39,047 nucleotides of DNA from an uncultured Dehalococcoidia bacterium (GCA_964502665.1 CAZCXP010000004.1:1-39047), one strand, 5' to 3'. Shown: positions 8,325 through 25,003, numbered from the stretch's first letter. Numbers and translations: made by a program. The notes: generated by a model not told the origin, from the sequence alone.

Positions 8325-8390
8325 TCACACCAGAACCTTTGCATCGCCCTGGAACGGGATACATCGATACCCATACCTGGGTAACTCAGA

Positions 8391-9881
8391 ATGAAGCAAT
8401 ACATTCTTTCAATAGACCAGGGTACCACGGGCACCACTGCGCTCCTGGTTGATCGGCATGGCAATGTGCAGGGGCGTGGCTACGCAGAGATCAGCCAATA
8501 CTATCCGCAGCCAGGTTGGGTCGAGCAAGAGCCTGCCGACATATGGCAGAAGACTTTGCAGGCGATAGAACAGGCAAAACGCGGTGCAAGCGCCAGCGAC
8601 GCGCACATCGCAGCCATCGGGATCGCCAACCAGCGCGAGACCACGCTTCTGATCAACAAGGAAACAGGCGAAGCAATAGGGCGTGCTATCGTGTGGCAGT
8701 GCCGCCGCACAGCACCCAGGTGTGACGAACTCACGACTCAAGGGCTCGCCGAGATGATCCGTGCCAAGACAGGCCTGGTGGTAGACGCATACTTCTCGGG
8801 AACCAAGCTGGAGTGGATGCTGGGCAGCGTTCAAGGCATCCGTCAACTCGCTGAACAGGGCAAAGTGCTCTTTGCCAATGTTGACACCTGGCTTATCTGG
8901 AAGCTCACTGGCGGGGCAGTTCATGCCACCGATATTTCCAATGCGTCGCGCACTATGCTCTTTAATCTCCATACCCTGGCCTGGGATGATGACTTACTCC
9001 GGGTATTCGGGATTCCACGAGCCATGCTCCCGAAGGTTCAACCTTCCAGCGGTGTTTTTGGCTATACTAGCGGCGGCATTCCAGTTGCTGGCGTGGCTGG
9101 TGACCAGCAAGCGGCGCTTTTCGGCCAGGCATGCTTCGAACCTGGAATGGTCAAGGCCACCTTAGGCACTGGTGCGTTCGTGCTGATGAACATTGGAAAG
9201 GCCCCCACAGTTTCGAAACATGGCTTGATAACCACTATCGCCTGGGGCATCGGGGACGCAGTTGAGTATGCGTTGGAAGGAAGCGTCTTCATAGCAGGAG
9301 CCGTCATCCAGTGGCTGCGCGATGAATTGGGGCTGATCGCTGATGCAGCAGAATCGGAGCGGCTGGCAGCTGAAGTAAAGGACACGGGTGGGGTGTACTT
9401 CGTGCCTGCCTTCGTAGGGCTGGGTGCACCACACTGGGATATGTACGCCAGGGGTACAATCGTAGGTTTGACCCGGGGCACCGGTAAGTCTCACCTGGTC
9501 AGAGCGGCGCTCGAGTCGATCGCCTACCAGGTGTGCGACGTGGTAAGAGCTATGACAGCCGATTCAGGTTTACGACCAACGGAGATACGGGCGGACGGAG
9601 GTGCCGCCGCCAATAACTTCCTCGCCCAGTTCCAGGCCGATATGCTTGGTGTGAAGGTATCACGCCCTCGATCAGTTGAGACTACGGCCCTGGGAGCAGC
9701 GTATCTCGCTGGGCTGGCGGTGGGGTTTTGGAAAGACCGTGCGGAGATAGCATCGCTTTGGGACGAGGACCAGTCCTTCATACCTGCTGGGGAACGGGAA
9801 AGGCGTCAAGCTCTCTACCGTGGCTGGCGTAGGGCTCTAAGGCGATCCAGACGATGGCTGACGAAAGGCACAGGACTATAG
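8391..9881 (+). CDS. glpK: Glycerol kinase
   Basis: 496 aa FGGY kinase. N-terminus ILSIDQGTTGTTALL, YPQPGWVEQEP, NQRETTLL, GDQQAALFGQ and GGAAANNFL are typical GlpK blocks. Confidence 0.95.
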   Translation: MKQYILSIDQGTTGTTALLVDRHGNVQGRGYAEISQYYPQPGWVEQEPADIWQKTLQAIEQAKRGASASDAHIAAIGIANQRETTLLINKETGEAIGRAIVWQCRRTAPRCDELTTQGLAEMIRAKTGLVVDAYFSGTKLEWMLGSVQGIRQLAEQGKVLFANVDTWLIWKLTGGAVHATDISNASRTMLFNLHTLAWDDDLLRVFGIPRAMLPKVQPSSGVFGYTSGGIPVAGVAGDQQAALFGQACFEPGMVKATLGTGAFVLMNIGKAPTVSKHGLITTIAWGIGDAVEYALEGSVFIAGAVIQWLRDELGLIADAAESERLAAEVKDTGGVYFVPAFVGLGAPHWDMYARGTIVGLTRGTGKSHLVRAALESIAYQVCDVVRAMTADSGLRPTEIRADGGAAANNFLAQFQADMLGVKVSRPRSVETTALGAAYLAGLAVGFWKDRAEIASLWDEDQSFIPAGERERRQALYRGWRRALRRSRRWLTKGTGL

Positions 9882-9936
9882 CAGCGGTTGGCCAGGCGAA
9901 TAGGTGTATCCTGTCGGAACAGAAGAAGGTGCCTTT

Positions 9937-11130
9937 ATGGATCTTTTCGATAGATTCAATGCCGAGAAATGCACCTTGTGCGGCGAATGTTTTCACCAGT
10001 GCCCGGTGATGCATTTGCCCCTGGAGGTTGCAAAGGCGGAGATCGTGCGGCTCACAACCGGTCAGGAGACGCGTCACGTGTTGCAGAAATGCACGAGCTG
10101 CTTCGCATGTAACCTCATCTGCCCTGAGGGGTGCAATCCTACCCAGGCAATCCTCGATATCTGGCACGAGAAATCCGTGCGCCGAGGCTTGCCCATAAGG
10201 GCCATGTACTACATCCCCGATAGCGCGCTCAATTTCAGAACCTACGTCCTCGAGAGGCTTCCAAAGGATGAAAAGGCCCTCGTTAAGTCGTGGGAGGATA
10301 CCTCGCCCTGCGATGAAGTGTTCTATCCCGGTTGCAATGTGATTACCGTTCCCTATCTGACGCGGACGAAACTCCTCGACGGCATGAATATCAGGGGATC
10401 GCTGAATCTGTGCTGTGGCGAGACCTACTACCGCACCGGACAGTACGAGATGGTGGAGAGGGCCGCCAAACGGCTGGAGGCGTGGCAGAAGCAACTGGGT
10501 TTCAAGAAGATGATCATTCCCTGCACCGCTGGCCGTAACATGTTCACCAACGTTTTGCCCAAATTCGGTGTGAAGTTCGATTTTGAGGTTCAGCACCTGC
10601 TGCCCTGCCTGCTGGAGAGGATCGAGAAGGGCAAAATCGAGATCGTCAAGCCTCTGAACATGACGGTCACCATCCAGGAATCCTGCTACGGCAAATTCTT
10701 CGGGGACGAGTATATGGATGTTCCGAGAAAGCTATTGGAGAAGGCGGGCGCTACGGTGGTAGAGGAAGACCTCTGTCGCGAGAAAGCCCTGTGCTGCGGT
10801 ATCGGGGGCGGGTTCAGCTACTCTTCGAGCTACCACCCTTGGGACATCACCCTGGCCACGATAAGGACCTTGCGGCTGGCCAAGAAGACAAAGGCACAGG
10901 CATTGGTGGTTTACTGTGCCGGCTGCCTCCAGATGCTCACCGTTGGTCAAATCGTCTATCCCAACCGGATGCCCATCTACCATATACTCGAGCTGCTTCA
11001 GATTGCCGCTGGCGAAGAGCCGGAAAGGCGCCATAAGGGAAGGGCGCGTTCGATGTTCAAAGGGGTCGCGATCAACCAGTTCCCCAAGGTGATCTCCAGG
11101 AAGCGATTCTATACCAAGGACCTGCCCTAG
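9937..11130 (+). CDS. HdrD/GlpC-like iron-sulfur protein (2x[4Fe-4S] + 2 CCG domains), paralogue 1
   Basis: CTLCGECFHQCP and CTSCFACNLICP ferredoxin motifs. CCG motifs LNLCCGE and ALCCGIGGG. ATG 9937 is preferred over the listed GTG at 9904. Confidence 0.85.
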   Translation: MDLFDRFNAEKCTLCGECFHQCPVMHLPLEVAKAEIVRLTTGQETRHVLQKCTSCFACNLICPEGCNPTQAILDIWHEKSVRRGLPIRAMYYIPDSALNFRTYVLERLPKDEKALVKSWEDTSPCDEVFYPGCNVITVPYLTRTKLLDGMNIRGSLNLCCGETYYRTGQYEMVERAAKRLEAWQKQLGFKKMIIPCTAGRNMFTNVLPKFGVKFDFEVQHLLPCLLERIEKGKIEIVKPLNMTVTIQESCYGKFFGDEYMDVPRKLLEKAGATVVEEDLCREKALCCGIGGGFSYSSSYHPWDITLATIRTLRLAKKTKAQALVVYCAGCLQMLTVGQIVYPNRMPIYHILELLQIAAGEEPERRHKGRARSMFKGVAINQFPKVISRKRFYTKDLP

Positions 11131-11268
11131 CATTTATGTACGGAGCATCGTAGGGATGCAAACATGGATTTCGCTGGTTCGCGGAAGACATTTAGGCTCT
11201 GTGGTGTTAATATCCGATGTCAGGCATTAAATCGTAGCGAGACCTAAAGCGAAAGGGGGCACGCGGCG

Positions 11269-12465
11269 ATGGCTGAGCTTAGGGATTTCTTCAATGAGGA
11301 GGCCTGCGACCGGTGTGGTGACTGCCTTGCGAAATGCCCTGTTATCCATCTGAGTCAGGCCGAGGCGCAACGAGAGATCGGTCGCCTCATCGATGGTGAG
11401 GAGAGCAGGGTGGTCCTCGACCACTGTTCCTCCTGCTTCGCCTGCAACCACATCTGCACCAAAGGGGCGAATCCCTATGGATTGATACTGTTCCGATGGT
11501 TTGAGCGCTACCAGAGGAAGGGTCTCCCCCAGAGGGCTCATATGGCCCTGCCTCTTGCGGAGAAGAACTATTTTCAGGTGCTCAAGGAAAAGGCTCCCCC
11601 TGATGAGCAAAGAGTCCTTCGAGAGTGGCACGATCTCTCCCGCCTGGAGCTGGCCTCGAAGGGACAGGCGCTCTTCGCCGGGTGCAATCTGAAGATGATG
11701 CCTTACTTCACCTTCAGTTCGCTTTTCGCCGACCTTCCGATTTTCACCGCCCCTGATCTGTGCTGCGGCGAGGTTTACTTCCGCATGGGCATCCTGGACA
11801 AGGCCGAGAGCCATGCGCACTACCTCGAAGAAAGATACCGCGCCCTAAACCCGAAGAGCGTGGTCTACTTCTGCCTTGCTGGTTACAACACGATGCAGAA
11901 CTTGCTGCCCCGATACTTTGGAGTTAGCTTCGATTTCGACAAGGTGTACCTCCTCGACTACCTGTGGCAAAAGATAGAGGCAGACGAGATAAAGATCGCA
12001 CGCCGCGCCGAAGGAACAGTCACCGTCCAGGATCCTTGCCATGCCAAGACCCTGGGCTCCCACTTCATGGACATGCCGCGCCAACTGCTTCAGGACATGG
12101 GATACAGCATAGTGGAGATGGAGCATAACAGGGAGTTGGGGCTGTGCTGTGGCTTCGGTAACGGGGCTGGCCGCTACAGCCCTATAGATATCATCTCATG
12201 GGCTCTGAGGAGACTTGGTGAGGCCAGGAGAACAGGGGCAAAGATGTTGGTCACATATTGCAGCGTTTGCCTACTCTTCCTCTCTGTGGCGCGGAAGCTC
12301 TATCCTATGGCCCCTCCGGTATATCATGTACTCGACCTGTTACAGATGGCCATCGGCGAGCAGCCGGCATTGAGACACTCGGAGCGGGCCAACAAGATGA
12401 TCAAGTACATGACCTTTGGCCTGCCCCGGATGGTCTCCCCCAGGAGAAGCTGGGTCGAGAGCTAG
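11269..12465 (+). CDS. HdrD/GlpC-like iron-sulfur protein, paralogue 2
   Basis: CDRCGDCLAKCP and CSSCFACNHIC motifs. CCG motifs PDLCCGE and LGLCCGFGNG. Colinear with paralogue 1 at roughly 35-40% identity by eye. Confidence 0.85.
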   Translation: MAELRDFFNEEACDRCGDCLAKCPVIHLSQAEAQREIGRLIDGEESRVVLDHCSSCFACNHICTKGANPYGLILFRWFERYQRKGLPQRAHMALPLAEKNYFQVLKEKAPPDEQRVLREWHDLSRLELASKGQALFAGCNLKMMPYFTFSSLFADLPIFTAPDLCCGEVYFRMGILDKAESHAHYLEERYRALNPKSVVYFCLAGYNTMQNLLPRYFGVSFDFDKVYLLDYLWQKIEADEIKIARRAEGTVTVQDPCHAKTLGSHFMDMPRQLLQDMGYSIVEMEHNRELGLCCGFGNGAGRYSPIDIISWALRRLGEARRTGAKMLVTYCSVCLLFLSVARKLYPMAPPVYHVLDLLQMAIGEQPALRHSERANKMIKYMTFGLPRMVSPRRSWVES

Positions 12466-12537
12466 CGCGCCCGGCGATTCGCTGGAGCCGACACTCGCTA
12501 CCGCGCGTCCAAATCGGCGACTCCGATGAGGGTCGGG

Positions 12538-12580
12538 GCCGGCAATAACTGCGCTGTTTGTAGCAGTAGGTATTGCCGGC
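12538..12580. terminator. Long hairpin between convergent genes (candidate bidirectional terminator)
   Basis: GCCGGCAATA ... TATTGCCGGC is a perfect 10-bp inverted repeat enclosing a second 5-bp pair (ACTGC/GCAGT). It sits between the stops at 12465 (+) and 12595 (-). There is no clear U-tract. Confidence 0.45.
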
Positions 12581-12594
12581 AGCCAAGAGGAACT

Positions 12595-13764
12595 CTAGAT
12601 ACTGATCGGATACTTACCCCACTTGTGCGCCGCCTCGATCATCCAGGCCAGTCGTGTTGGGTCCACAGCCGTATGAGAGTGGGACGCCGAGAGGATATAG
12701 CCACCTCCCTTGGCAGCATCCTTTATCGCTTTCTTAACTGCATCTTCAACTTCTTCTCTGGTGCCCCTGACCAAGAGATAAGAAACATCCAGATTGCCAA
12801 CCAGGACCAGTTTGTGCCCCACTTGTTCTCGAACCCTGCCCAGTTCCATACCCGCTGTGGGCTCCAGCGTAAATACGCCGTCAAAGCCCCATTCAACGAA
12901 TTTGTCGAGGAATGCATAGATATTTCCGCAGGAGTGCCAGATCAATTTCTTGTTCTTTTTGTGCACAAGCTCCGAGACCCGTCTGTAGCTTTCCCCGAAC
13001 AGCTCCTCAACCAGATCGGGCCGCATTATCGGCCCCGTCTTCTGTCCCAGGTCATCCCCGCCCATCACCACCTCGCCCCCGGACTTCACTATCGCATCCA
13101 GGTACCTCAAGTAGAGCTCGGTCTGGAAAGCGATCACCCTTTTCACGAAATCGGGCTTCTGATAGACGTATCTGGTGAAGTTCACGAAGCCCATCGACTG
13201 CCAGGTGGACTCGAATATCTCTGTGCTGGTGTACCCGATGGGGAAAATCCTGTCGCCGTAGTTGTCTGCCAGCTTCCTATAATGCTCGGCGGCGTCCCTT
13301 ATGAACTTGTCGAGAAAGGGCTTCTTACTTTCAACCCAGGCATCCCACTTCTCCTCCGTGGGACAGAGCCCGTGGGTATAGTTCACAACTACGTTGCCGT
13401 CTTCCTTCCCGGTTATCTCCCAGGCACGCCCTGCTATATCGTGGCAGGCCAGACCTTGCTTGACCCCCGGGTCTTCGACCACCTCCATGTATGTGTATGT
13501 CGTCCAGTTGGCGTCGAAGCCCAGCTTGATTGCGGCCTCCAGGGCATCCGAGAAATTGCCGTATACCAACTCTGCCCAGCTTGAATTGATGATATCCTTG
13601 ACCTGCCCCTTCAACTCGGGGTTTCTGAGCATGCTGGCCATATCGGCGGGCGGCCTGCCCAGAATCTTGTTGCTGGTGGCTGGTTCCGCGATCAGACCCA
13701 TCACCGGAACCCGGTCCGGCTCCTCGTGATTCATGGTAGCTAGAACACGTTCCTTGAAATCCAT
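12595..13764 (-). CDS. URO-D/MtaA-family (corrinoid-dependent) methyltransferase
   Basis: Uroporphyrinogen-decarboxylase-like fold pattern (EPDRVPVMG, GGDDLGQKTGPIMRPD, IWHSCGNI, FTLEP). ATG at 13764 shares one base with the corrinoid gene stop (GTGATGG), and a GGAG lies 9 nt upstream. The listed start at 13779 is also possible. Confidence 0.85.
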   Translation of the reverse strand: MDFKERVLATMNHEEPDRVPVMGLIAEPATSNKILGRPPADMASMLRNPELKGQVKDIINSSWAELVYGNFSDALEAAIKLGFDANWTTYTYMEVVEDPGVKQGLACHDIAGRAWEITGKEDGNVVVNYTHGLCPTEEKWDAWVESKKPFLDKFIRDAAEHYRKLADNYGDRIFPIGYTSTEIFESTWQSMGFVNFTRYVYQKPDFVKRVIAFQTELYLRYLDAIVKSGGEVVMGGDDLGQKTGPIMRPDLVEELFGESYRRVSELVHKKNKKLIWHSCGNIYAFLDKFVEWGFDGVFTLEPTAGMELGRVREQVGHKLVLVGNLDVSYLLVRGTREEVEDAVKKAIKDAAKGGGYILSASHSHTAVDPTRLAWMIEAAHKWGKYPISI

Positions 13765-14411
13765 CACGAGGCACTCCATTCCTTGATAATGTCAGTGCCC
13801 GTAACAGCATCGGGGGCAAATGCGTCCGCTCCTACGTTTGTGGCAAATTCCTTGGTGAGCGCTGCGCCACCTATGATGACTTTGACCCTATTCCTGAGGC
13901 CTTGCTTCTTCAATTCTTCTATGACTTTCCCTATCTCCATATCCGTGGCGGTCAGGAGACACGACATTCCTAGAGCGAGCGGACTATGCTCGTTGACTGC
14001 ATCAATGAATTTCTGAGTAGGTACATCGATACCAAGATCGATCATATTGAAGCCTGCGCTCTTGGCGTAGTTTATGAAAATGTTCTTGCCGAGATCATGC
14101 AGATCACCTGCAACAGTTCCAACCACAACGGTTCCTGCTGATTCCGTCGCCCCAGCTTCCATCAGTGGCGATAGCAGATTCATAACGTCCTTGGCTATTT
14201 CACCCGCATATACCAGCTCAGCCAGAAACCACTCTCCTTCTTGAAACCTTTTCCCCACAATCTGCAAGGCACGGGTGACCGCATCAACGGCGTCTTTGAC
14301 GGCCGCAGAATCGTCTCCCTTGATTACCGAGCTGGCCGCTTCGATCGCAGTGTCCATGTCCAGCTCTAATAGGCCGTTCTTTAGTTGCTCGAGGACGTCA
14401 TTTGACATCAT
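13764..14411 (-). CDS. Corrinoid (cobalamin-binding) protein
   Basis: B12-binding DxHxxG motif (GDLHDLGKN), SCLLT and IIGGAAL blocks, N-terminal helical cap. GGGAGA RBS. Confidence 0.9.
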   Translation of the reverse strand: MMSNDVLEQLKNGLLELDMDTAIEAASSVIKGDDSAAVKDAVDAVTRALQIVGKRFQEGEWFLAELVYAGEIAKDVMNLLSPLMEAGATESAGTVVVGTVAGDLHDLGKNIFINYAKSAGFNMIDLGIDVPTQKFIDAVNEHSPLALGMSCLLTATDMEIGKVIEELKKQGLRNRVKVIIGGAALTKEFATNVGADAFAPDAVTGTDIIKEWSAS

Positions 14412-14726: not shown

Positions 14727-15026
14727 ATGGACTACGTGGACAAAACCCTAACCTGTTTGGATTGCGGCGCAGAGTTCACCTTCAGCGCTTCCGAGCAGGA
14801 GTTCTTCGCTAGCAAGGGTTTCACCAATGAACCTGGCCGTTGTCCTGACTGCCGGGCAGCCAGAAGACAGCAGCGCCTTGGTGGGTACAGTGGCGGAGGC
14901 TACCGGCGGAGGCAAATGTACCCGGCCGTTTGCGCCTCTTGCGGCAAAGACTGCGAAGTACCGTTCGAGCCCCGAAACGGTCGACCTGTCTACTGCTCGG
15001 ACTGCTACGGTGCGGTTAAGCGGTAG
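14727..15026 (+). CDS. Zinc-ribbon domain protein (zf-trcl-like)
   Basis: Two CxxC...CxxC units (CLDCG..CPDC and CASCG..CSDC). FSASEQEFFASKGF block. RBS AAAGGAGGG. Confidence 0.8.
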   Translation: MDYVDKTLTCLDCGAEFTFSASEQEFFASKGFTNEPGRCPDCRAARRQQRLGGYSGGGYRRRQMYPAVCASCGKDCEVPFEPRNGRPVYCSDCYGAVKR

Positions 15027-15198
15027 CCAGAAGAAAAGAGCAGTTAACTACTGATCCTACCAGGATCGCTTTCAGGACTTAGGCTGAGGATAAGGGCAGG
15101 TGGGAATGGTGCCCGATTCCTCGTTTTGACGATGCCCTGGTTTTCTTGCATGACGTCATTCGCTTTGCTGCCCAGTTTTGGTGCCAAAGGAGGAAACA

Positions 15199-15627
15199 AT
15201 GGCGCAGGCAGAACATGGTGATACCGTCAGGGTACACTGCACGGGCAAATTCGCGGACGGCAAGGTATTTGAGGCTTTCGTCGAGGATCAACCTCTGCAA
15301 TTTACAATAGGTGAGGATAAGGTTATCACGGATCTTGAACAGGCTGTAGTCGGGATGACTAAGGGCGAATCGAAAACCATCAAGGTCATGGCGGACAATG
15401 CATACGGCCCATACCGTGATGAACTGATATTTGTGCTAGACCGGGCCCGATTCCCAGAGAACCTTCAACTAGAGGTCGGTCAGGATTTACTAATACGTGA
15501 AGGGAATGATCCAGGACTCCGAGTGACTGTGATCGATGTCTCCGAATCGAGCGTGACCCTGGATGCCAACCACCCTCTGGCTGCGGAAGACCTGACTATC
15601 GATATCTATCTCGTAGAGGTCGTCTAA
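15199..15627 (+). CDS. FKBP-type peptidyl-prolyl isomerase (SlyD-like)
   Basis: GDTVRVHCTGKFADGKVFE, GMTKGESK and the NHPLA..DLT..I.LVEV C-terminus. ATG 15199 follows AGGAGG; the listed start at 15178 is less likely. Confidence 0.85.
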   Translation: MAQAEHGDTVRVHCTGKFADGKVFEAFVEDQPLQFTIGEDKVITDLEQAVVGMTKGESKTIKVMADNAYGPYRDELIFVLDRARFPENLQLEVGQDLLIREGNDPGLRVTVIDVSESSVTLDANHPLAAEDLTIDIYLVEVV

Positions 15628-15682
15628 TCGTTTCGTCCGTAGTGATATGCCAATTGGGCTTTTGCCCAAAGAAGGGGGCAAT

Positions 15683-16030
15683 TTGAATATCCATGTCGGC
15701 AATCTAGCGCGTGAGGTCACGGAAGAAGAGTTGCGACAAGCCTTTGAACCATTTGGACAAGTTGCAGCAGTGAGGATCATCACGGACAGGTACAGCGGCG
15801 TGTCCAAAGGCTTTGGCTTCGTAGAGATGGCAGACAAGGGCGAAGGTCAAGCTGCCATCGAAGGTCTGAACATGAAGGAGTTGGCAGGGCGTACGCTGGA
15901 TATCAGTGAGGCACGCCCTCCCCGCGACGGCAGAAGGGACAACAGGCCCTATGGTGGCGGGGGAGGGGGCAGGCCGGGCCGTGGGGGAAGAAGTGGCTGG
16001 TCAGGCGGCGGCAGACGGCGACCGTTTTAA
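15683..16030 (+). CDS. RRM-type RNA-binding protein with an Arg/Gly-rich tail
   Basis: RNP-2 IHVGNL and RNP-1 KGFGFVEM. C-terminal RRDNRPYGGGGGGRPGRGGRSGWSGGGRRRPF. TTG 15683 gives the canonical MNIHVGNL N-terminus behind AAGGGGG. The listed start is 15647. Confidence 0.85.
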   Translation: MNIHVGNLAREVTEEELRQAFEPFGQVAAVRIITDRYSGVSKGFGFVEMADKGEGQAAIEGLNMKELAGRTLDISEARPPRDGRRDNRPYGGGGGGRPGRGGRSGWSGGGRRRPF

Positions 16031-16115: not shown

Positions 16116-16952
16116 CTACCCCCTCCTTTTCAACGGTATGGTCTTGAACTCCTCCACCACCCCCGTTACTGCCTTTTCCACAGGGATCCTCTCTATACTT
16201 GACGCTCCGACAAAACCTACCGCGTCCGTATGTTCATAAAGATACCTGGTATCCTCAGGGGCTGCAAATGGTCCCCCATGCGCTAGACAAATGATGTCCG
16301 AATTTATTTCCTTGGTCGCCTCTATCATCTTCTGCACGTTCTCAGCCGCATCCTTCATAGACGAAGCATCATAACCAACCAGGCCGCCAGCGGTTCCTCC
16401 TGCATGAGGAACCATGCAATCAACTCCTGCTACAGCTATCGCCGGTACATCTTTGGGATACCATACGTAAGCCATGGTGAATATATCCATATCGCGCGCT
16501 ATCCGTATCATCTCAATCTCTCTGGAGAACCCCAGTCCCTCCGCATCCTTCTGCTTACGCCAGTTTTCATCCGTACTCCAGCCGTATGTAGGAAAGTTGA
16601 TTATGCCTGAGTATCCAATGTCGATGAACCTTTTCACCAGTTGAGCCAGGTCCCTGCCAGCGGGCGGTTCAAATGCTTCGATGCCGGCGATTATGGGGGT
16701 GTCTCGCACCACATTCCCTATTTCCTCATACATCTCCAAGGTTACCGCATTGGAGTTCTCAACGGGGCCAGTCTGGAACCCTCTTATCCTTGTCTTCCCA
16801 GAACTATAGACCATTATCAGATCGGCCCCTCCAAGTTCAGCGCATTTAGCTATGATACCGGCACTGCAACCGGCGGCGATGATCGGCTTTCCCTCCGCGA
16901 TTGTATTTTTGAGCCTCTCCAGTATCTCCGTCCTGGTGAATCTTCGGCTCAT
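16116..16952 (-). CDS. PEP-hydrolase-like TIM-barrel protein (COG5564 family)
   Basis: N-terminus R.EILERLKNTIAEGKPIIAAGCSAGIIAKCAELGGADLIMVYSSG matches my recollection of this family, which is normally adjacent to UPF0261. The start lies 1 nt after the upstream stop. Confidence 0.75.
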   Translation of the reverse strand: MSRRFTRTEILERLKNTIAEGKPIIAAGCSAGIIAKCAELGGADLIMVYSSGKTRIRGFQTGPVENSNAVTLEMYEEIGNVVRDTPIIAGIEAFEPPAGRDLAQLVKRFIDIGYSGIINFPTYGWSTDENWRKQKDAEGLGFSREIEMIRIARDMDIFTMAYVWYPKDVPAIAVAGVDCMVPHAGGTAGGLVGYDASSMKDAAENVQKMIEATKEINSDIICLAHGGPFAAPEDTRYLYEHTDAVGFVGASSIERIPVEKAVTGVVEEFKTIPLKRRG

Positions 16953-16953
16953 T

Positions 16954-18168
16954 CTAGCTGCCTACCTTCTTGACCACTTTGTCAAAGGTATCGACCACTC
17001 TTTTGGCAAACTCATCCTCATTAATGTGAGCGCTGACCTCTACGATATCAACGCTTTCGTTTACAGTTTCCTTGACCACCTGAGCAAATGCTCCATCGGC
17101 CTCTGGGTCGTAGAAATGCTGGCCCTCCTTGTCCACTGCTGAAAAACCCCGCAGCGGAATGACCATGGCAACCGGCCCCACCGCCCTGTTTGCTCTCTCA
17201 GCTAGTATTTTGGCTGCCTTCGCCACCTCTTCTTTGTTTGTTCTTGCCAGCACTGTGTCTGGACCATGAGCATGCAACTTCCGCTCTTTGAATTCCGGCG
17301 GAACAGTCTCCTTTGTTCCCGGGAAGATGAACATGTCCAGGCCGCCGGGAACGATAACCTGGGGAAGTCCTTTCTCACCTGCCAGACTAAGCCTGGCTTC
17401 TGCCATTGCCTCCGGCAGGTGAAAAGCCAGCGGTATCATCACCTCAAAGGTTGTCAAGTCTATGATTCCGCTGATTCTGTCCTCCTCCATCAGTTCGTCC
17501 AGCACTTGCGTTTTTGAATGAAACACTATGGGGTCATATCCCCTTTCCTCAAGAAGGGGCTTGATCTTCATGACCGCAGGTGTGGTCACGCCGAGAGCAG
17601 TTATTCCAACCAGAGGCCTGACTCGCTGTGGCACTTCCGCTTCCGTCATGCCTACGATCGCCCCGGCTGCGCTGGCCAGTGTCCTCATCATCACTGAGTT
17701 GAGCCCCAGTATATCCGCCGGGGTCTGCATCATGGTTATGTCCTTGGTGCCGACGGATTGGGCATTGAACCACGTGGCAACCATGAGCTTGGGCACGCCG
17801 ATGGGCAATGCTCTCATGGCCGCCGTTCCGATGGCAGTCCCTGTTGAGCCGCCTAAGGAGATTATGCCGTCTAGCTTTCCCGCAGAGTGCAGCTCCTTAA
17901 CAATCTTCAGAAGCCCTTGTATCATTACATTCGTTCCCTCTGTTCTCTCAGCACCTTTCTCCGCTGCCTCGACCAGTTCCTCTAGGCTTCTACCACCGGC
18001 GCGGGCGACCTCTTCACGAGTGATATCCGCTTTGGTTTGAGGCTCGCCCATAACGCCCACGTCTATAATTATCGTCTTATGCCCTTTCCTCTCTATCTGC
18101 TCCTTGACATACTGGGTCTCCTCGCCCTTGGTATCCAGGGTCACCGGAATCACTATCGTCTTTGGCAT
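16954..18168 (-). CDS. UPF0261 / Tm-1-like ATP-binding protein
   Basis: MPKTIVIPVTLDTKGEE N-terminus and a two-lobed ~400-aa architecture. ATG 18168 follows GAGGG; the listed start is 18204. Confidence 0.75.
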   Translation of the reverse strand: MPKTIVIPVTLDTKGEETQYVKEQIERKGHKTIIIDVGVMGEPQTKADITREEVARAGGRSLEELVEAAEKGAERTEGTNVMIQGLLKIVKELHSAGKLDGIISLGGSTGTAIGTAAMRALPIGVPKLMVATWFNAQSVGTKDITMMQTPADILGLNSVMMRTLASAAGAIVGMTEAEVPQRVRPLVGITALGVTTPAVMKIKPLLEERGYDPIVFHSKTQVLDELMEEDRISGIIDLTTFEVMIPLAFHLPEAMAEARLSLAGEKGLPQVIVPGGLDMFIFPGTKETVPPEFKERKLHAHGPDTVLARTNKEEVAKAAKILAERANRAVGPVAMVIPLRGFSAVDKEGQHFYDPEADGAFAQVVKETVNESVDIVEVSAHINEDEFAKRVVDTFDKVVKKVGS

Positions 18169-18223
18169 CTGACTACCCTCACTGCAATTACATTTAAGGT
18201 ACACGTTTCAGATACAGCTTGGC

Positions 18224-19402
18224 TCAAAGCCCGACAATTACGCAAGCGATAGCGGGCGAGAACGGCGGGCCGCCCAGATTATGGACCAGCCCCAATCTAG
18301 GGTCCTTTATTTGCCTTTGGTCTGCCTTGCCCTGAAGCTGTTTATACATCTCATACTGCATCCTGAGTCCGCTGGCTCCGACCGGATGCCCGAAGGACTT
18401 GAGGCCACCATCGGGCTGAACCGGAAGTCCCCCTGTCAGCTCAAAGAACCCCGAGTCGATATCTTCCTTCACCTTGCCCCTGGGGGAAAACTGAAGGTCT
18501 TCCATGATCAGTGCCTCGGTGATGGAGAAGCAGTCGTGGACCTCGGCCATGCTTATCTCCTCGCGGGGGTTCTTTATCCCTGCCTCGGCGTAGGCCGCTA
18601 TTCCGGCTTGGACGGTTTCCTCTATATGAGTGTAATCCCAGTCGCTTCTCACATTTCCCTGTCCGTGGCCGATGCATATCTGGAGTGCCTTGATGTACAC
18701 CGGGTCGGCCCGGAACTTCTTGGCGTCCTCAGCGCGCACCACTACAGCCGCCGCCGCCCCATCGCTCACCCCACAGCAGTCGAAAATGCCAAGAGGCCAG
18801 GCGATGATAGGGGCATTGAGGACTTGCTCCACGGTGATTTTCCTGCGGAGGTGGGCCTTGGGATTCAAAGAGCCGTTATAGTGGCTCTTTGCCGAGATCT
18901 TGGCCAGCATTGTCTTCCCCTCCTCGGGGCTGAGGCCATAACGGGCGAAATACCTGGTGGCCAGCATGGCGAATATGCCGGGTGGTGCGATGCTGGGAAA
19001 CACGTGGACACCGGCGCCCGAGGCTCCCTGCAAGCCGCTCAGACCCTGATCCTTTATCTTCTCAGCCCCTATGGCCAGGGCCACGTCGTACACCCGTGCT
19101 GCTACTGCATAGGAGGCATTCCTCAAGGCGTCGGACCCGGTACAGCACATGTTCTCCACCCGAGTCACCGGCTTGTACTGCAGTCTCAACGGCACCGCTG
19201 CTGCCATGCCGGCCATACCGGAGTACTCGTAGAAGGTGCCCACCCACGCTGCCTCGATATCGCTGGGTTCGACGCCGGCATCCTCATAAGCTTCGTAGGC
19301 AGCATCCACCATGAGATCGGTGACGTTCTTGTCCCAGAGCTCACCGAACTTGGTGCAGCCCATGCCCACTATGGCAACCTTGTCCTTTATGCTCTCACCC
19401 AT
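18224..19402 (-). CDS. Thiolase (SCP-x/archaeal acetoacetyl-CoA thiolase type)
   Basis: Nucleophile region VENMCCTGSDAL, GHPVGASG, and HNLGG near the C-terminus. Confidence 0.9.
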   Translation of the reverse strand: MGESIKDKVAIVGMGCTKFGELWDKNVTDLMVDAAYEAYEDAGVEPSDIEAAWVGTFYEYSGMAGMAAAVPLRLQYKPVTRVENMCCTGSDALRNASYAVAARVYDVALAIGAEKIKDQGLSGLQGASGAGVHVFPSIAPPGIFAMLATRYFARYGLSPEEGKTMLAKISAKSHYNGSLNPKAHLRRKITVEQVLNAPIIAWPLGIFDCCGVSDGAAAAVVVRAEDAKKFRADPVYIKALQICIGHGQGNVRSDWDYTHIEETVQAGIAAYAEAGIKNPREEISMAEVHDCFSITEALIMEDLQFSPRGKVKEDIDSGFFELTGGLPVQPDGGLKSFGHPVGASGLRMQYEMYKQLQGKADQRQIKDPRLGLVHNLGGPPFSPAIACVIVGL

Positions 19403-19414
19403 GTTGGCCCTCCT

Positions 19415-20845
19415 CTAACACCTTACGGGTCTGGTCTTCCAGAAGTAGTTGTGGACTCCGCGGTTGAAATAGAGCTTTCTAAAGGTCATCTCGACGGGCA
19501 TCATCACTTCCACCTGATCCGGATCACGGTCGGTAAGGTCGAACGCCCCCCGCCCTCCGCCGTCGAAGTCGACCACGACGACTGTGTTCGGCGGATCGTT
19601 GCTCTCTGCCAGTCTGTCCTGAGTAAAGGTGAAGACCTTGGCCTTCCTGTCAGCAAATCGATAAGGCTCAAACTGATCCTTGGCCTGACATACCACGCAT
19701 ACCCTCCCCGGCCTGACTTCGTACTGAGGCGTCCCGCAGTTGGTGCATCTCTGTCCATAGAGCGCCAGCAACTGCCTGCGTTCGCGCCGCAACTCTGAGA
19801 TGGACATGGGTGGTCGCTCTGGTCGTCTGGCCGGCTCCAGGGTCATCAGCCCCCGCCACCGAACGTAGGTTTCATAGCTCTTGATCATTCGCTTCGATTC
19901 AAGGTGCTTCCTGATACCTCTCCGCTCTCCCAGCTTCTCAATGCCATCTGTTACCTCCATGACAAAGGCATCCGCCCCGTTACCGTAGCTGGCCAGGAGG
20001 ACTCTATCACCAGGCCTGGCTTCCTCCAGGGCAGCTACCAGCATCATTGTCGCCAGCGCAGCGCCCGTATTGCCCACGGTCATGAACATAGTATCCTGAA
20101 TCTGGGAGGGATCGAATCCCGCGCTGGTTGCTACCCGCGCATGCCTCCTTACATCTGTTGGGGCGTCGTAGACCGCCTTAGCAAGATCCTTGGGCTCCAG
20201 GTTGCATTTCTCCATCAGCGCGGAGATAGCCGTGGGAAGGACTTTGGAATACCCTTCGTCGAGAACCATGCGATCCTCCCAGGAGCGGAGGAAGGCATCA
20301 CCATCAGCCCTCCATACTCCGGAGAATTCGTCTGAGATGTAGTAGCTATCCTGAATTTCAGCGATGAGGTCATCGTCTCCCAGCAGCAGGGCGGCAGCGC
20401 CATCGCCCAGCGCCTGCTCGAATTGGCCTGCCGGCGCCCCCATGCGGGTATCGGCAACAACCACCAGGACTCTTTTGGCCGAGCCGGCTTTGATCGCATC
20501 CAGAGCACACCCTAGGGCGCTGGTTCCTACCCGTAGCGAGCCGGCGAAATCCGCCGTTCGCACCTCTGCAGGCAGGTCCAGGGCGGCAGCTATTATGGCT
20601 GCGCCTAGCTTCTCCTTGTAGGGTAGGGTGGTCGAGGCCAGGAACAGGGCATCGATTCTGCTCCGGTCGATCCCTGTCAGGCAGTCAATGGCCGCTTCCA
20701 CAGCCATGGTTATGCTGTCCTCATCGAAATTGGCCACGGCCCTCTCACCGGGCATGGCAAATCCTCCCCAAGCCCTTTGGAACTCCTCCCTGCCTATGCG
20801 GTGAAAAGGAATGTAGGCACCATATGAAACCACTCCTGCCATCAA
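19415..20845 (-). CDS. HMG-CoA-synthase-like domain fused to a DUF35 zinc-ribbon/OB-fold domain
   Basis: N-terminal SYGAYIPFHRI and DEDSITMAVEAA blocks resemble archaeal HMGCS. The C-terminal 130 aa carry CTNCG...CVVCQ plus an OB-fold-like segment (DUF35). Confidence 0.85.
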   Translation of the reverse strand: MMAGVVSYGAYIPFHRIGREEFQRAWGGFAMPGERAVANFDEDSITMAVEAAIDCLTGIDRSRIDALFLASTTLPYKEKLGAAIIAAALDLPAEVRTADFAGSLRVGTSALGCALDAIKAGSAKRVLVVVADTRMGAPAGQFEQALGDGAAALLLGDDDLIAEIQDSYYISDEFSGVWRADGDAFLRSWEDRMVLDEGYSKVLPTAISALMEKCNLEPKDLAKAVYDAPTDVRRHARVATSAGFDPSQIQDTMFMTVGNTGAALATMMLVAALEEARPGDRVLLASYGNGADAFVMEVTDGIEKLGERRGIRKHLESKRMIKSYETYVRWRGLMTLEPARRPERPPMSISELRRERRQLLALYGQRCTNCGTPQYEVRPGRVCVVCQAKDQFEPYRFADRKAKVFTFTQDRLAESNDPPNTVVVVDFDGGGRGAFDLTDRDPDQVEVMMPVEMTFRKLYFNRGVHNYFWKTRPVRC

Positions 20846-21114
20846 TCGACCTCCTTCTACGCAAATCTACGGACCAGACGACTTCCTGGTATCGGTGAGC
20901 CTCTTTACATCCTGTGACTTTTTGACTGCTTGCGATTTGTAACAGGGCGAAATCGCCCCCGGATTATTATAGCGCAAAACTGCTGGAACTGCTGCCCTCG
21001 CCTTGCTGGTTGCTCTGTCCGGTGTCTGTCGCTGAGCAAAGCCCGCCTGGGATTCCAGGCCTTTGCCGCTCCCTAGCCTCTCCTGCACTGGCAAAAGCAT
21101 AGGGTCACACCATT

Positions 21115-21143
21115 TTGACAATTGATACGAACGGTGGTAGTAT
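21115..21143 (+). promoter_or_regulatory. sigma70-like promoter of the PAS kinase gene
   Basis: TTGACA (21115-21120), 17-nt spacer, TAGTAT (21138-21143). It lies 30 nt upstream of the ATG at 21173. Confidence 0.55.
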
Positions 21144-21172
21144 TCCGTTCACCTTAGCTGTGAGGGTGTGGG

Positions 21173-24100
21173 ATGAGAGACATTGCCAGAACAAAAGCGC
21201 AACTCATAGATGAATTGGCTGCAATGCGCCAACGAATCAGTGAACTGGAGACAACGGTAGGCGAGTGCAAGCGGATAGAGGATGCGCTGCGGGAGAGCGA
21301 AGCGAGGTATAGAGACCTGGTCGAGAGGGAGAAGGATATAATCTACACCCTCGACGCCGTAGGGAATGTCACTTCCGCCAATTCTGCTGTCAGCCTGCTC
21401 GGTTATCGACCGGAGCAGGTGGTGGGTAAGCATTTTACCGAGCTCATGGCTGAGGAACAGCGGGAAGAAACGATGGAGGATTTCAATCACCTGCTGAAGA
21501 CAGGTGAAGTGGTTGCTGAGACGGTACTGCTTGATACCAAAGGCGAACCGCATTTTGTCGAATACAGCTCGACTGTAATAGAGCAAGATGGCAAAGTTGT
21601 AGGAACGCGGGGTATTGTTCGCGACATCACCGAGCGCAAGCAGGCGGAGGAAGCGCGACTGGCAGCTGTCAAAACGGTATCAGATGTGGTAGAAGCCATT
21701 CCTGACGCATTAGCAATGCTCGACATTGATGGGAATCTAGTTCATATCAATTCGGCTTGTGCCAGAATGTTTGGCCTCGAGCCAGAAGAGGTTGTCGGGA
21801 AGAATACTATGGAGTTACCCACCATGACACCCGAGGATGCCGAAAAGGGTGTGCAGCTAATGAAGGAAGCGCTAGAAACGGGCGAAAGCAAAGCTGTCGA
21901 TATGATGGTTTACACAAAAGGGGGAAAGCAGTTTCCAATAAGCGCCCACGGGGCAATTGTGAGAGACGCCCAGGGAAATCCCATGTATTATGTTTCGATT
22001 ATGAGGGATATCACCGAGCGCAAGCGGTCGGAGGAAGCGCTGCGGGAATCCGAGGAGCGCTTTCGAGCGCTCATCGAAAACGCTCTGGATGCCATCGTGA
22101 TCCTGAATAGTGACGGAACCATACGCTACCAAAGCCCATCGATGGAGCGTATGACGGGACGCAAAGCAAAAGTCAGGATTGGCAGGGATCCTCTGGAGTT
22201 CTCTCATCCTGACGATACTCCACATGTGATCGAGGCCTTCGCTCAATTGCTCGAAAATCGGATTGCCACTGTGCACACTGAGTTACGTCTGCGGCACGAA
22301 GACGGCTCGTGGCGCACCTTTGAGGTTGTAGGCAATAACCTTCTCGACAATCCGGCAGTGGCAGGTATTGTTCTTAATTTGCGCGACATCACCGAGCGCA
22401 AGCGAATGCAGGAAAAGGTGCTACGCAGCGAGGGATACTTCAGGTCCCTCATCGAAAACTCCACGGAAGCCATCGCAATTGTCAATGGCGAAGGTCTTCT
22501 CACCTACGAAAGCCCATCCTTTGAGCGCCTCTTGGGATTCAAAGGGAAAGATCATATCGGCACGAGCCCATTTGAGCATGTTCACCGAGATGACAGGTCA
22601 AGAGTTGCTAACGCCTTCGCTGAATTGACGCAGAATCCAGGTGCCATCGCGCGCGATGAGCTACGTGTTTGGCATAGGAATGGCTCCTTGCATAACGTCG
22701 AAGTGATAGGCCGAAACCTGCTCAATGATCCAGCGGTGGGGGGCATTGTTGCCAATATACGCGACATCACCGAGCGCAAGCGGGCGGAGGATGCGTTGCG
22801 GCGGGAAGAGGAGTATTTTCGAGCGCTCATAGAAAACTCCCTGGACTTCGTCTGCGTTCTAAACAGTGATGGGACAGTACGTTATGAAAGCCCGTCGGTG
22901 GAGCGTGTGCAGGGGTACAAACCCGAAGAGCGAATTGGGCAAACCCCGGTTGAGCTTATTCACCCCGAAGACATGGCTGAGGCAGCTGATTTACTAGCTC
23001 ATATGCTGGAGAACCCGGGGACCACGCTGCGCGTTCAGTTACGCTTTCGGCACAAGGATGGCTCATGGCGCGTTCTTGATGCTGTAGCACAGAACCTTCT
23101 GGACAATCCTGCGGTCGCAGGCATTGTGGCCAATCTGCGGGACGTCACAGAGCAAAAGAGAGCCGAGGAGGCGCTGCGGGAGAGCGAGCACAACTATAGA
23201 CTCCTGTTCGAGAGCACGATCGATGGCACAGTCGTTATCGATGCCGAAACGATGAAAGTGGTGCTTGCCAATCAAACCGCCGCCAAAATGTATGGATTTG
23301 CTTCTATGGAGGAGGTGGTTGAGGCGAATCTACTTGACTACATTCATCCAGACGATAGAGATCGGGCTCTCAAGACTATTGCAGAAGATCTGTTTGAAAA
23401 AGACCTGCGTCGGACTGAGGAGTTTCGCACTGTAACCAAAGACGGCAGAGAGATATGGATAGCCGGTGTCGGCACAAGGGTTGAATACCAGGGAAGGTTG
23501 GCAGGTTTGATTTCGTTCAGAGACATCACCGAGCACAAGCGCACGGACGAGAGACTGAGAGAGCTTTATGAACAGGAAAGGGAATCGAGGCAGCGGGTGG
23601 AAGCGGAGATGAAGAGAAGGGTGGAATTCACCAGGGCGCTGGCGCATGAGCTGAAGAACCCGCTCACTTCGGTGCTCGCTTCCAGTGACTTGCTCGCATC
23701 TGAAGTCCACGATGAACCCTTGCTTAGCCTGGCCAGGAACATCGGTCAGGGTGCATCCAGCCTCAATAGCAGGATTGATGAACTTCTCGACCTGGCACGA
23801 GGTGAGGTTGGCATGCTCCAGTTGAAACTGGATTCGGTCGACCTGTTGCAACTGCTTCGAGAGACAGGCGAGAGTATGAGGCCACTCACCTCAAGCCGTG
23901 GTCAGTCTCTAACCCTCGACCTGCCTCCTTCTCTCCCCCCAGTTCGCGCTGATGCGGCCCGCGTGCAGCAAGTTGTTACCAACCTCCTGGGCAACGCCTT
24001 CAAATTCACCCCGGTCGCTGGAAGTATTACGCTGCGGGCTAAGGAAAAGGACGCTGCCCTCGTGGTTGAGGTTCGAGATACGGGTCGCGGCATGTCCAAG

Positions 24101-25003
24101 GAGGAGCAGAGGCAGCTTTTTGAGCCCTATCATCGCTTGCATAGCGAGCCCTCGGGCGGATTGGGGCTGGGGCTCGCTCTCTGCAAGACACTGGTGGAGC
24201 TGCACGGTGGACAGATATGGGTGAGAAGCAATGTAGGTAGAGGCTCAACATTTGTCTTTTCACTGCCTTTGGAGGCTGCTGAGGGACAGGCAGTGGAGTT
24301 GGAGAAGCCAGCCAAACTGTGGAAAGTGTTGATTATCGAGGACGACCAGGAAATCGTGAGTTCTGTTTCCGTAGCATTTCGGATGCGATGGCCTGAGGCT
24401 GAGCTGATATCAAGCAGTCTGGGAGAAGAAGGATTGGAGCTGGTGGAGACAGAAAACCCTGACCTCGTGATCCTCGATCTGGGCCTTCCTGATATAAGCG
24501 GCTTCGAGGTGTTGAGAGAGATTCGTCTTTTTTCCCCGGTACCTGTTGTCATCCTTACCGTTAAGGCAGACGAAGCCGATATGGTCAAGGGACTTGAGTG
24601 GGGAGCTGATGACTACGTGGTGAAGCCTTTCAGACAGCTGGAGTTGCTGGCACGGCTCAAGGTCCAGCTACGCAAACAGATCCCCCCTGGGGAAGAGGCC
24701 CCTATCATTTGTGGTTCATTGCAACTGGACCCCTCCACGTACCAATTGACCCACGGAGGAAGAGAGATAAGCCTTACCATCGTCGAGGGTCGTATCATGC
24801 AGTACCTCATGCAAAACGCAGGCCATGTGGTAACTCACTCCCGGCTTGCCGAAGCAGTCTGGGAGGAGGATCATGCCGGAGCCGTTGATAGCCTTAGAGT
24901 CTATATCCGATACCTCAGAGAAAAACTTGAGGAGGACCCCAGCCAGCCACAGATGATCCTCACCAAAGTCGGCATAGGATACTCGCTGGCAAAACCGGCT
25001 TAG
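21173..25003 (+). CDS. Soluble hybrid sensor: 6 PAS domains + HisKA/HATPase + REC + OmpR-type winged-helix DNA-binding domain
   Basis: No TM segment; coiled-coil N-terminus. Six PAS modules separated by RDITERKRAEE-type linkers. H-box ALAHELKNPLTS (His825), N-box LLGNAFKFT, G1 DTGRGM, G2 GGLGLGLALC. REC from K1051 (VLIIEDD...LVILDLGLPDISG...KP). C-terminal LTIVEGRIMQYL...VYIRYLREKLE...GIGYSL wHTH. Confidence 0.9.
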   Translation: MRDIARTKAQLIDELAAMRQRISELETTVGECKRIEDALRESEARYRDLVEREKDIIYTLDAVGNVTSANSAVSLLGYRPEQVVGKHFTELMAEEQREETMEDFNHLLKTGEVVAETVLLDTKGEPHFVEYSSTVIEQDGKVVGTRGIVRDITERKQAEEARLAAVKTVSDVVEAIPDALAMLDIDGNLVHINSACARMFGLEPEEVVGKNTMELPTMTPEDAEKGVQLMKEALETGESKAVDMMVYTKGGKQFPISAHGAIVRDAQGNPMYYVSIMRDITERKRSEEALRESEERFRALIENALDAIVILNSDGTIRYQSPSMERMTGRKAKVRIGRDPLEFSHPDDTPHVIEAFAQLLENRIATVHTELRLRHEDGSWRTFEVVGNNLLDNPAVAGIVLNLRDITERKRMQEKVLRSEGYFRSLIENSTEAIAIVNGEGLLTYESPSFERLLGFKGKDHIGTSPFEHVHRDDRSRVANAFAELTQNPGAIARDELRVWHRNGSLHNVEVIGRNLLNDPAVGGIVANIRDITERKRAEDALRREEEYFRALIENSLDFVCVLNSDGTVRYESPSVERVQGYKPEERIGQTPVELIHPEDMAEAADLLAHMLENPGTTLRVQLRFRHKDGSWRVLDAVAQNLLDNPAVAGIVANLRDVTEQKRAEEALRESEHNYRLLFESTIDGTVVIDAETMKVVLANQTAAKMYGFASMEEVVEANLLDYIHPDDRDRALKTIAEDLFEKDLRRTEEFRTVTKDGREIWIAGVGTRVEYQGRLAGLISFRDITEHKRTDERLRELYEQERESRQRVEAEMKRRVEFTRALAHELKNPLTSVLASSDLLASEVHDEPLLSLARNIGQGASSLNSRIDELLDLARGEVGMLQLKLDSVDLLQLLRETGESMRPLTSSRGQSLTLDLPPSLPPVRADAARVQQVVTNLLGNAFKFTPVAGSITLRAKEKDAALVVEVRDTGRGMSKEEQRQLFEPYHRLHSEPSGGLGLGLALCKTLVELHGGQIWVRSNVGRGSTFVFSLPLEAAEGQAVELEKPAKLWKVLIIEDDQEIVSSVSVAFRMRWPEAELISSSLGEEGLELVETENPDLVILDLGLPDISGFEVLREIRLFSPVPVVILTVKADEADMVKGLEWGADDYVVKPFRQLELLARLKVQLRKQIPPGEEAPIICGSLQLDPSTYQLTHGGREISLTIVEGRIMQYLMQNAGHVVTHSRLAEAVWEEDHAGAVDSLRVYIRYLREKLEEDPSQPQMILTKVGIGYSLAKPA
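21621..23540 (+). repeat. Six-fold 378-384-nt periodic repeat inside the kinase gene (PAS linker sequence)
   Basis: GCGACATCACCGAGCGCAAGC occurs identically at 21621, 22383 and 22761. Variants occur at 22005, 23139 and 23520. Spacings are 384, 378, 378, 378 and 381 nt. Confidence 0.85.

Follow-up and report, generated by a model that had tools for sequence, protein, structure and literature searches.

A tightly spaced thiolase–UPF0261 gene block in a Dehalococcoidia bacterium probably formed when deletion joined two independent gene pairs

Results

Four adjacent genes form two modules

The DNA analysed here, called the window throughout, is a stretch of 39,047 nucleotides (nt) from an uncultured Dehalococcoidia bacterium (GCA_964502665.1, CAZCXP010000004.1:1-39047). 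Its best protein matches agree with a place in the Dehalococcoidia (Chloroflexota) and with an origin in sediment or subsurface samples. At 16116-20845 it carries four open reading frames (ORFs), all on the minus strand, at the positions given by a first-pass annotation made from the sequence alone. They form an operon-like block that comprises a gene for an HMG-CoA synthase (HMGS)-like/DUF35 fusion and a thiolase gene (module A), then a UPF0261 gene and a gene for a PEP-hydrolase-like TIM barrel (module B; Table 1). The tight spacing described in that annotation was confirmed: the gaps are 12 nt between genes 1 and 2, 55 nt between the thiolase and UPF0261 genes and 1 nt between the UPF0261 and PEP-hydrolase-like genes. 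The sequence AAGGAGG lies seven bases ahead of the gene 1 ATG at 20842. The UPF0261 gene almost certainly starts at the ATG at 18168, because its homologues are 404 aa long with the N-terminus MPKTIV; the alternative gap of 19 nt requires a GTG start, which has no support.

Pfam searches bore out the family assigned earlier to each gene. Gene 1 matches KAS-III/HMGS-like N-terminal domains, a ChsH2-type zinc ribbon and an OB fold (DUF35), and gene 2 matches Thiolase_N and Thiolase_C_1. Gene 3 matches UPF0261 (176 bits) and UPF0261_C (210 bits) in its N- and C-terminal parts, respectively, and gene 4 matches PEP_hydrolase (PF09370, 273 bits).

Table 1. Features of the four-gene block and its junctions, in window coordinates.
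Feature	Position	Strand	Remarks
Module A gene 1, HMGS-like/DUF35	ORF 19415-20845; gene 19415-20842	-	likely ATG 20842; 475 aa
Module A gene 2, thiolase	18224-19402	-	392 aa; GAGGAGG ribosome-binding site
Reductase-gene remnant (last ~14 nt)	18208-18221	-	former stop TGA at 18208-18210; matches 3' ends of relatives
Ancestral reductase–UPF0261 spacer	18169-18207	-	aligns with the L001 and L034 spacers; GAGGG ribosome-binding site
Module B gene 1, UPF0261	ORF 16954-18204; gene 16954-18168	-	putative kinase, Tm-1-like ATP-binding protein
Module B gene 2, PEP-hydrolase-like TIM barrel (COG5564)	16116-16952	-	278 aa
Divergent intergenic region (330 nt)	20843-21172	.	candidate promoter site for all four genes
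PAS-rich hybrid histidine kinase/response regulator	21173-25003	+	1276 aa; divergent from the four-gene block

The four-gene adjacency is confined to one species

UPF0261 loci were collected from homologue look-ups, from a scan of species-representative genomes (11 loci) and from a profile-based scan of metagenome contigs. The four window proteins, together with two usual neighbours, a reductase and an SDR, then served as tblastn queries against every locus. A thiolase or HMGS-like gene was present within ~7-8 kb of UPF0261 in only 1 of 88 non-redundant loci. This sole locus (L015/L026, on contig CAYVES010000011.1) belongs to a 98%-identical sibling genome, in which the four proteins are 97-99.7% identical to those of the window. 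Conversely, the HMGS-like/DUF35 and thiolase pair was found in five other contexts at 62-85% identity, in which the pair itself is kept and the neighbours differ: convergent genes for a dUTPase (85% identity) or a metallophosphatase (66%), genes for an acyl-CoA dehydrogenase and a CoA-transferase (62%), an SDR gene with one for a GMC oxidoreductase (84%), or convergent HGD-D and BcrAD genes (80%). UPF0261 was present in none of these five contexts. The four genes adjoin one another in a single species only, and do not represent a conserved new pathway; the search for conserved adjacency in related genomes, which the first-pass annotation had itself proposed as a check on its functional link between the modules, thus went against that link.

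The usual partners of UPF0261 are of another kind. A PEP_hydrolase gene lies directly 3' of it in 41/43, 8/9 and 20/21 loci of three identity bands, and immediately downstream in 69 of the 73 loci that have downstream DNA; judged from these gene orders, the TIM barrel appears to be an obligate partner. Directly upstream, 34 of 37 loci carry a gene for an OYE-type reductase of ~647 aa (Oxidored_FMN and Pyr_redox_2 domains), the count taking in loci at least 64% identical with at least 400 nt of upstream DNA. A classical SDR gene usually comes before the reductase gene in these loci. L056 and L057 are the two remaining exceptions to the reductase linkage. The SDR/reductase/UPF0261/TIM-barrel cluster seems to be breakage-prone.

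Both exceptions were read individually. At L057:3750-5598 the UPF0261 gene is truncated at its 5' end (323 aa) and has no reductase gene upstream; at L056:3709-4923, UPF0261 stands with neither the upstream reductase gene nor the downstream PEP-hydrolase-like gene. The cluster of SDR, ~647-aa reductase, UPF0261 and PEP-hydrolase-like genes was seen at L001:5215-10050 and at L003, L004, L016-L019, L022, L027-L055 and L058. At L001, which is 84% identical, a Hydrolase_4 alpha/beta hydrolase gene and an FGGY sugar kinase gene follow a few kb downstream of the UPF0261 pair (L001:13376-15829). The same two genes are found in the window at 7491-9881 on the plus strand, ~6 kb from the UPF0261 pair; their changed relative orientation in L001 points to a local inversion in addition to deletion.

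The thiolase–UPF0261 junction is a deletion scar

The spacer between the thiolase and UPF0261 genes measures 316 nt in the sibling and 55 nt in the window, and the two sequences differ there by a clean 261-nt indel flanked by the short repeat CAAGC / CACGC. Plain blastn of the sibling spacer against the other loci did not reveal any reductase remnant; one emerged when the stretches preceding UPF0261 in 24 loci were aligned in a targeted way. This alignment showed that the end of the sibling spacer is the decayed 3' end of a reductase gene: the stump reads ...EEITQIGEAIHARSRVARCI and then stop, compared with ...GDCVKPGKIMEAIHGGSRIARQI and stop in the intact reductase, and its ending ...GEAIHARSRVARCI pairs with the ending ...MEAIHGGSRIARQI of intact relatives, each followed by the stop. 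The Smith-Waterman score of the stump was 24, compared with 8.8 +/- 1.2 for shuffled sequences (z = 12.7 against L029 and 10.8 against L016). The last nucleotides of this remnant and the ancestral spacer that follows it are still present in the window (Table 1), whereas tblastn gave no reductase match anywhere in the 39-kb window. The junction is visibly a deletion scar from another operon.

At L026:9054-9335 the sibling spacer also contains, on the opposite strand, an ORF of 51 aa (MSKEKVSLFGASGTMGFEAFKELW...), of which the first ~42 residues are Rossmann-like (FGASGTMG). This fragment runs into the 3' end of the thiolase gene and is truncated there; it is probably what is left of a second gene. 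No NCBIfam family matched it, and no intact copy was found among the fetched loci. Since both a Rossmann-type fragment and a reductase stump lie in the sibling spacer, at least two breakpoints preceded the final 261-nt deletion in the window. In the simplest history, an ancestor would have carried an SDR/reductase/UPF0261/TIM-barrel operon; loss of the SDR gene and of nearly the whole reductase gene would then have placed the remaining pair behind the thiolase pair, and the debris between the two pairs would have been trimmed further.

It could be argued that two contigs were wrongly joined at the junction during assembly, as the sequence is derived from a metagenome and as synonymous divergence from the sibling changes from the thiolase gene (dS 0.046) to its neighbours (~0.13). 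This is scarcely credible, since the same gene order is found in an independently assembled metagenome-assembled genome (MAG; CAYVES010000011.1), with the same flanks and differing by the clean 261-nt indel alone. The four-gene order is not an assembly artefact. The low dS of the thiolase gene (18224-19402 compared with L026:7875-9053) is about one-third of the 0.12-0.14 measured for the three neighbouring genes; strong constraint on codons or a patch of recent recombination could account for this.

Transcription of the block and selection on its genes

Consensus scans detected no minus-strand terminator-like or promoter-like sites between the four genes above the level of shuffled sequences; internal sites of this kind had been named in the first-pass annotation as features that would divide the block into separate transcription units. 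In the window and the sibling alike, scans for promoters and terminators scored no better than shuffled controls, and no transcription units could be delimited from them. Folding of the 55-nt spacer was no better than that of shuffles (z = -0.37), and folding of the 3' flank gave nothing above chance. A TATAAT-like box was noted on the minus strand of 20843-21172; the consensus scan gave no match for that strand. The sole promoter of the four genes probably lies in this 330-nt divergent region. Module B, the upstream genes and promoter of which are gone, would then be read through from the thiolase-pair promoter, because no terminator follows the thiolase gene. We infer that the four genes are probably now co-transcribed in the window genome; the co-transcription proposed earlier is plausible, given the short gaps, the absence of a terminator and the failure to find a promoter belonging to the UPF0261 pair.

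The ratio of nonsynonymous to synonymous substitution rates (dN/dS) between window and sibling was 0.11 for the HMGS-like/DUF35 gene, 0.02 for the thiolase gene, 0.086 for the UPF0261 gene and 0.127 for the PEP-hydrolase-like gene. All four genes are intact and their values are low, indicating purifying selection, and module B is therefore still used.

These results bear on the proposal, made in the first-pass annotation, that the four proteins serve one pathway, in which the UPF0261/TIM-barrel pair carries out an ATP-dependent activation or phosphoryl transfer and the thiolase complex a C-C bond thiolysis or condensation coupled to it. Such a pathway would fit the tight spacing without a terminator, and the persistence of the arrangement in two genomes that differ at dS ~0.13 and in which purifying selection acts on each of the four genes. 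We nevertheless consider it improbable: the adjacency is limited to the sibling among the 88 UPF0261 loci and is absent from all five other contexts of the thiolase pair, the junction is the visible scar of a different operon, with a reductase stump, and in the sibling the spacer is not a tight junction but 316 nt of gene debris.

Module B is related to an aromatic kinase and is usually linked to a flavoreductase

The window UPF0261 protein scores 194 bits against MarK (9MPY), and keeps the ATP-site motif D12-T13-K14 as well as His217, which corresponds to His219 of MarK. MarK of Novosphingobium aromaticivorans is a UPF0261 kinase that uses ATP to phosphorylate acetovanillone and related phenols (PMC12624787, 2025), so that the earlier statement that UPF0261 has no established bacterial function is out of date. 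MarK activity is the one UPF0261 activity demonstrated so far, and the form paired with a TIM barrel is uncharacterised. A place beside acvCDEF/hpeCBAD carboxylase and phosphatase genes marks the MarK type; no carboxylase genes were found among the window ORFs scanned or in related loci, and the partner in the window is a PEP_hydrolase gene. The closest structural relative of the PEP-hydrolase-like protein is Mll9387 (2P10, 192 bits). The association of the two genes has been noted in other contexts: the COG5441/COG5564 pair ranks high in phylogenetic profiling as strongly co-occurring (PMC8963296), and plant Tm-1 is a fusion of UPF0261 to a TIM barrel, for which two prokaryotic genes were proposed as precursors (PMC5028733). 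Literature searches with the COG and Pfam identifiers returned only the Tm-1 origin paper and the phylogenetic-profiling table; no paper was found that describes the SDR/reductase/UPF0261/PEP-hydrolase-like cluster, and none that links 'Tm-1-like' with 'thiolase'.

The reductase usually encoded upstream of UPF0261 is closest to 2-naphthoyl-CoA reductase NCR (6QKG, 390 bits), then to 2,4-dienoyl-CoA reductase (323 bits). The linkage extends to distant loci. In Freyarchaeota-type contigs (~55% identity), reductase and SDR genes divergently adjoin the UPF0261 pair, and in a group at ~50% identity the order is MerR, UPF0261, TIM barrel, DUF362, FMN-only OYE and alpha/beta hydrolases. Because the linkage persists in distant loci, the substrate of module B would be tied to flavin-dependent reduction rather than to thiolysis, and module B is predicted to be a phosphotransferase acting on such a substrate. 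By analogy with MarK, the UPF0261 protein would bind ATP and phosphorylate an enol- or phenol-type hydroxyl of a small molecule, and its TIM-barrel partner probably joins in this phosphate transfer.

Two of the distant cases were seen at single-locus level. The 342-kb contig Ga0315314_1000009 (Asgard-type/Freyarchaeota) has two paralogous UPF0261 and PEP-hydrolase-like pairs (L064:4100-9098 and L069:4665-9113), each with a ~60%-identical OYE-type reductase gene divergently adjacent, which suggests that the association with the reductase is old or moved between genomes as a unit. The ~50% group is represented by L087:6111-13939 and L099:4674-13787; L099 adds a GMC oxidoreductase gene and a gene for a periplasmic binding protein.

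A further idea, which we put forward tentatively and hold to be doubtful, is that the window pair is the orphaned half of an undescribed, deeply conserved unit of an SDR, an NCR/FadH-type Fe-S flavoreductase, UPF0261 and the TIM barrel, in which MarK-like, ATP-dependent phosphorylation of an enol or phenol oxygen is mechanistically coupled to flavin-dependent reduction of a C=C bond or a ring; phosphorylation would, for example, turn a hydroxyl into a phosphate leaving group. If this were true, the window species would be a natural 'half-knockout', with the kinase half kept under selection and driven from the thiolase promoter.

Module A belongs to a described class of bacterial thiolase complexes

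The gene 1 product comprises an HMGS-like domain (residues ~1-335) and a DUF35 zinc ribbon and OB fold (~355-475), the zinc ribbon having the pattern C366xxC...C382xxC. In the PDB it matches archaeal HMGS (6ESQ_I) about as well as PhlA (5M3K_A), with ~131 bits for either, and it falls below the cut-offs of the HMGS equivalog models (NF003274, 242.4 compared with 244; TIGR00748, 184.9 compared with 353.35). The HMGS catalytic tetrad E82/C114/H238/N270 is replaced by T71/L103/D226/N258, in which the Asn alone is kept. Among 120 homologues at 59% identity or more, these positions are T in 120/120, L in 116/120, D in 96/120 and N in 91/120. As the nucleophilic Cys, the Glu and the His are gone, the HMGS-like protein is predicted to be incapable of forming HMG-CoA as the archaeal enzyme does.

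The gene 2 product scores 568 bits against NF004810 (cut-off 403) and is an SCP2/archaeal-type thiolase of the acetoacetyl-CoA thiolase (ACAT) kind, with 199 bits to archaeal ACAT (6ESQ_A) and 75 bits to PhlC. Its catalytic motifs are intact: Cys86 (NMCCTGS), HDxF (H289DCF) and GHx (G338HP). No polyketide synthase (PKS) or non-ribosomal peptide synthetase (NRPS) genes were found near the block among the window ORFs scanned.

A class of bacterial minimal thiolase complexes, 'ACAT/HMGS-DUF35', has been described, with 1,001 of 1,030 bacterial HMGS/ACAT/DUF35 loci counted as such 'minimal' clusters (Liao et al., Nat Commun 2026; PMC12960953). In that work, the complex of P. fluorescens, with a fused HMGS-DUF35, made neither HMG-CoA nor acetoacetyl-CoA and cleaved acetoacetyl-CoA; mutation of the tetrad abolished HMG-CoA formation in the archaeal complex; and the Friedel-Crafts acylases PhlACB and MucABC additionally lacked HDxF, the loss of which defines the acylase branch. 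Because the fusion, the lost HMGS residues and the kept thiolase motifs match, module A is assigned from its sequence features to this described class, as a further member. Its chemistry is most likely the CoA-dependent thiolysis of acetoacetyl-CoA or of another 3-oxoacyl-CoA, given the conservation of the motifs and the assayed P. fluorescens homologue. The thiolase subunit would do the chemistry, with the HMGS-like/DUF35 subunit as a non-catalytic scaffold.

Two other functions were weighed for module A. It might be a genuine archaeal-type acetoacetyl-CoA thiolase/HMG-CoA synthase channelling complex that feeds the mevalonate pathway: the architecture fits, 6ESQ is the best PDB match and the NF003274 score is just under its cut-off. 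This is extremely unlikely, as the Glu, Cys and His of the tetrad are replaced family-wide, the missing nucleophile contradicts such an activity, tetrad mutation abolishes HMG-CoA formation by the archaeal complex (PMC12960953), and the TIGR00748 score (185) is far from 353. The likeness to archaeal HMG-CoA channelling invoked in the first-pass annotation therefore fails at three of the four HMGS catalytic residues. Alternatively, module A might be a PhlACB/MucABC-type Friedel-Crafts C-acyltransferase acting on phenolic ketones, with module B as a MarK-like kinase for the same class of acetyl-phenols, in which case the two modules would make chemical sense together. MarK does phosphorylate acetyl-substituted phenols (PMC12624787), and gene 1 scores alike to PhlA and to archaeal HMGS and, like PhlA, is without the catalytic residues. 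This pairing of functions is very improbable all the same, because the thiolase keeps the HDxF motif and is much closer to archaeal ACAT than to PhlC, because no PKS or NRPS genes lie nearby and because the adjacency is not conserved.

Genes on either side of the block

The regulator encoded divergently from the block (21173-25003, plus strand) combines at least six PAS domains and HisKA/HATPase with a receiver and an OmpR-type DNA-binding domain, and constitutes a one-protein signalling system. Sibling locus L026 keeps the same divergent gene, called there as 1144 aa; this neighbour is missing at L006-L008.

On the other side, three small genes at 14727-16030 (plus strand) converge on the block. 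They encode a double treble-clef zinc finger protein, an FKBP-type prolyl isomerase and an RRM-domain RNA-binding protein, and all are conserved in the sibling. The RRM domain is less common among bacteria. Further along, a corrinoid (B12-binding) protein and a URO-D/MtaA-like methyltransferase are encoded at 12595-14411 (minus strand), and two paralogous proteins with Fer4 and CCG domains (HdrD/GlcF-like), encoded at 9904-12465 (plus strand), adjoin them. The genes at 9904-14411 look like a corrinoid-dependent methyl-transfer or demethylation system. The overlapping ORF at 12526-13584 (plus strand), which has no family match, is probably spurious.

Discussion

We conclude that the block is, with high probability, a young chimeric transcription unit in which two functionally independent two-gene modules were joined by deletion. 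The direct observations behind this view are the reductase stump at the junction, the adjacency that is not conserved, the lost HMGS residues and the purifying selection on every gene of the block. We rejected the mevalonate, Friedel-Crafts acylase and assembly-chimera explanations mainly on the lost tetrad residues, the kept HDxF and the independent MAG, respectively.

Several points weigh against the chimeric origin or limit it. First, the UPF0261 pair has stayed whole, and purifying selection still acts on it, with no reductase or SDR gene beside it, and the new arrangement could have gained a use; the absence of reductase and SDR covers the window and the sibling locus, and copies elsewhere in the genome could survive. 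Second, the order of the rearrangements is partly reconstructed, and the sibling spacer also holds the unrelated Rossmann-type fragment. Third, consensus promoter scans are weak evidence in Chloroflexota, and the single transcript is a prediction. Finally, the enzyme activities are carried over from homologues that share about 40-45% identity or less.

The block unites a new member of a recently described thiolase-complex class with the remnant of a conserved, uncharacterised reductase-kinase cluster, and illustrates how gene loss can create an operon-like arrangement. Close spacing is by itself a weak argument for a shared pathway; here, deletion built an operon-like block from parts of two unrelated operons. 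For module A, annotations of 'HMG-CoA synthase' of this type in Dehalococcoidia are not evidence for a mevalonate pathway, since the catalytic residues are absent throughout the family. For module B, the UPF0261/TIM-barrel pair has an NCR/FadH-like flavoreductase and an SDR as its conserved partners, and these are a better functional clue than the thiolase link. As a single activity, that of MarK, is known for the widespread UPF0261 family, these partners also offer a much better starting point for the study of its function.

Among known systems, module A most resembles the P. fluorescens PfACAT and HMGS-DUF35 complex. Both consist of two adjacent genes in the same order with HMGS and DUF35 fused, both have lost HMGS catalytic residues and kept the thiolase Cys, HDxF and GHx motifs, and neither has PKS or NRPS genes nearby. 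The window protein differs in retaining the tetrad Asn (T-L-D-N), and its host is an anaerobic Dehalococcoidia bacterium. The archaeal thiolase/HMGS/DUF35 complex (6ESQ/6ET9) has the same three structural parts, and provides the best PDB match for the thiolase, the motifs of which are all kept; in the window, however, the HMGS-like part is without Glu, Cys and His, and DUF35 is fused rather than separate. With the PhlACB/MucABC acyltransferases (5M3K, 9SKH, 9VBO), module A shares an inactive HMGS-like subunit, similar to PhlA (131 bits), but its thiolase retains HDxF and is distant from PhlC (75 bits), and no biosynthetic gene cluster lies nearby.

The counterparts of module B are MarK and plant Tm-1. 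MarK is, like the window protein, a full-length two-domain UPF0261 protein with the DTK motif and the equivalent of His219, and the match is moderate (194 bits). MarK acts alone, as a homodimer, and its gene lies beside the acvCDEF carboxylase genes, whereas the window protein is translationally coupled to a PEP-hydrolase-like TIM barrel and appears to have been linked ancestrally to an OYE-type reductase and an SDR. Plant Tm-1 and Tm-1-like proteins (UPF0261 and a 'TBST' TIM barrel; 3WRV-3WRY) are known only as viral replicase inhibitors, with no known enzymatic role; they contain the same two domains as module B, which in the window are separate proteins encoded by adjacent genes.

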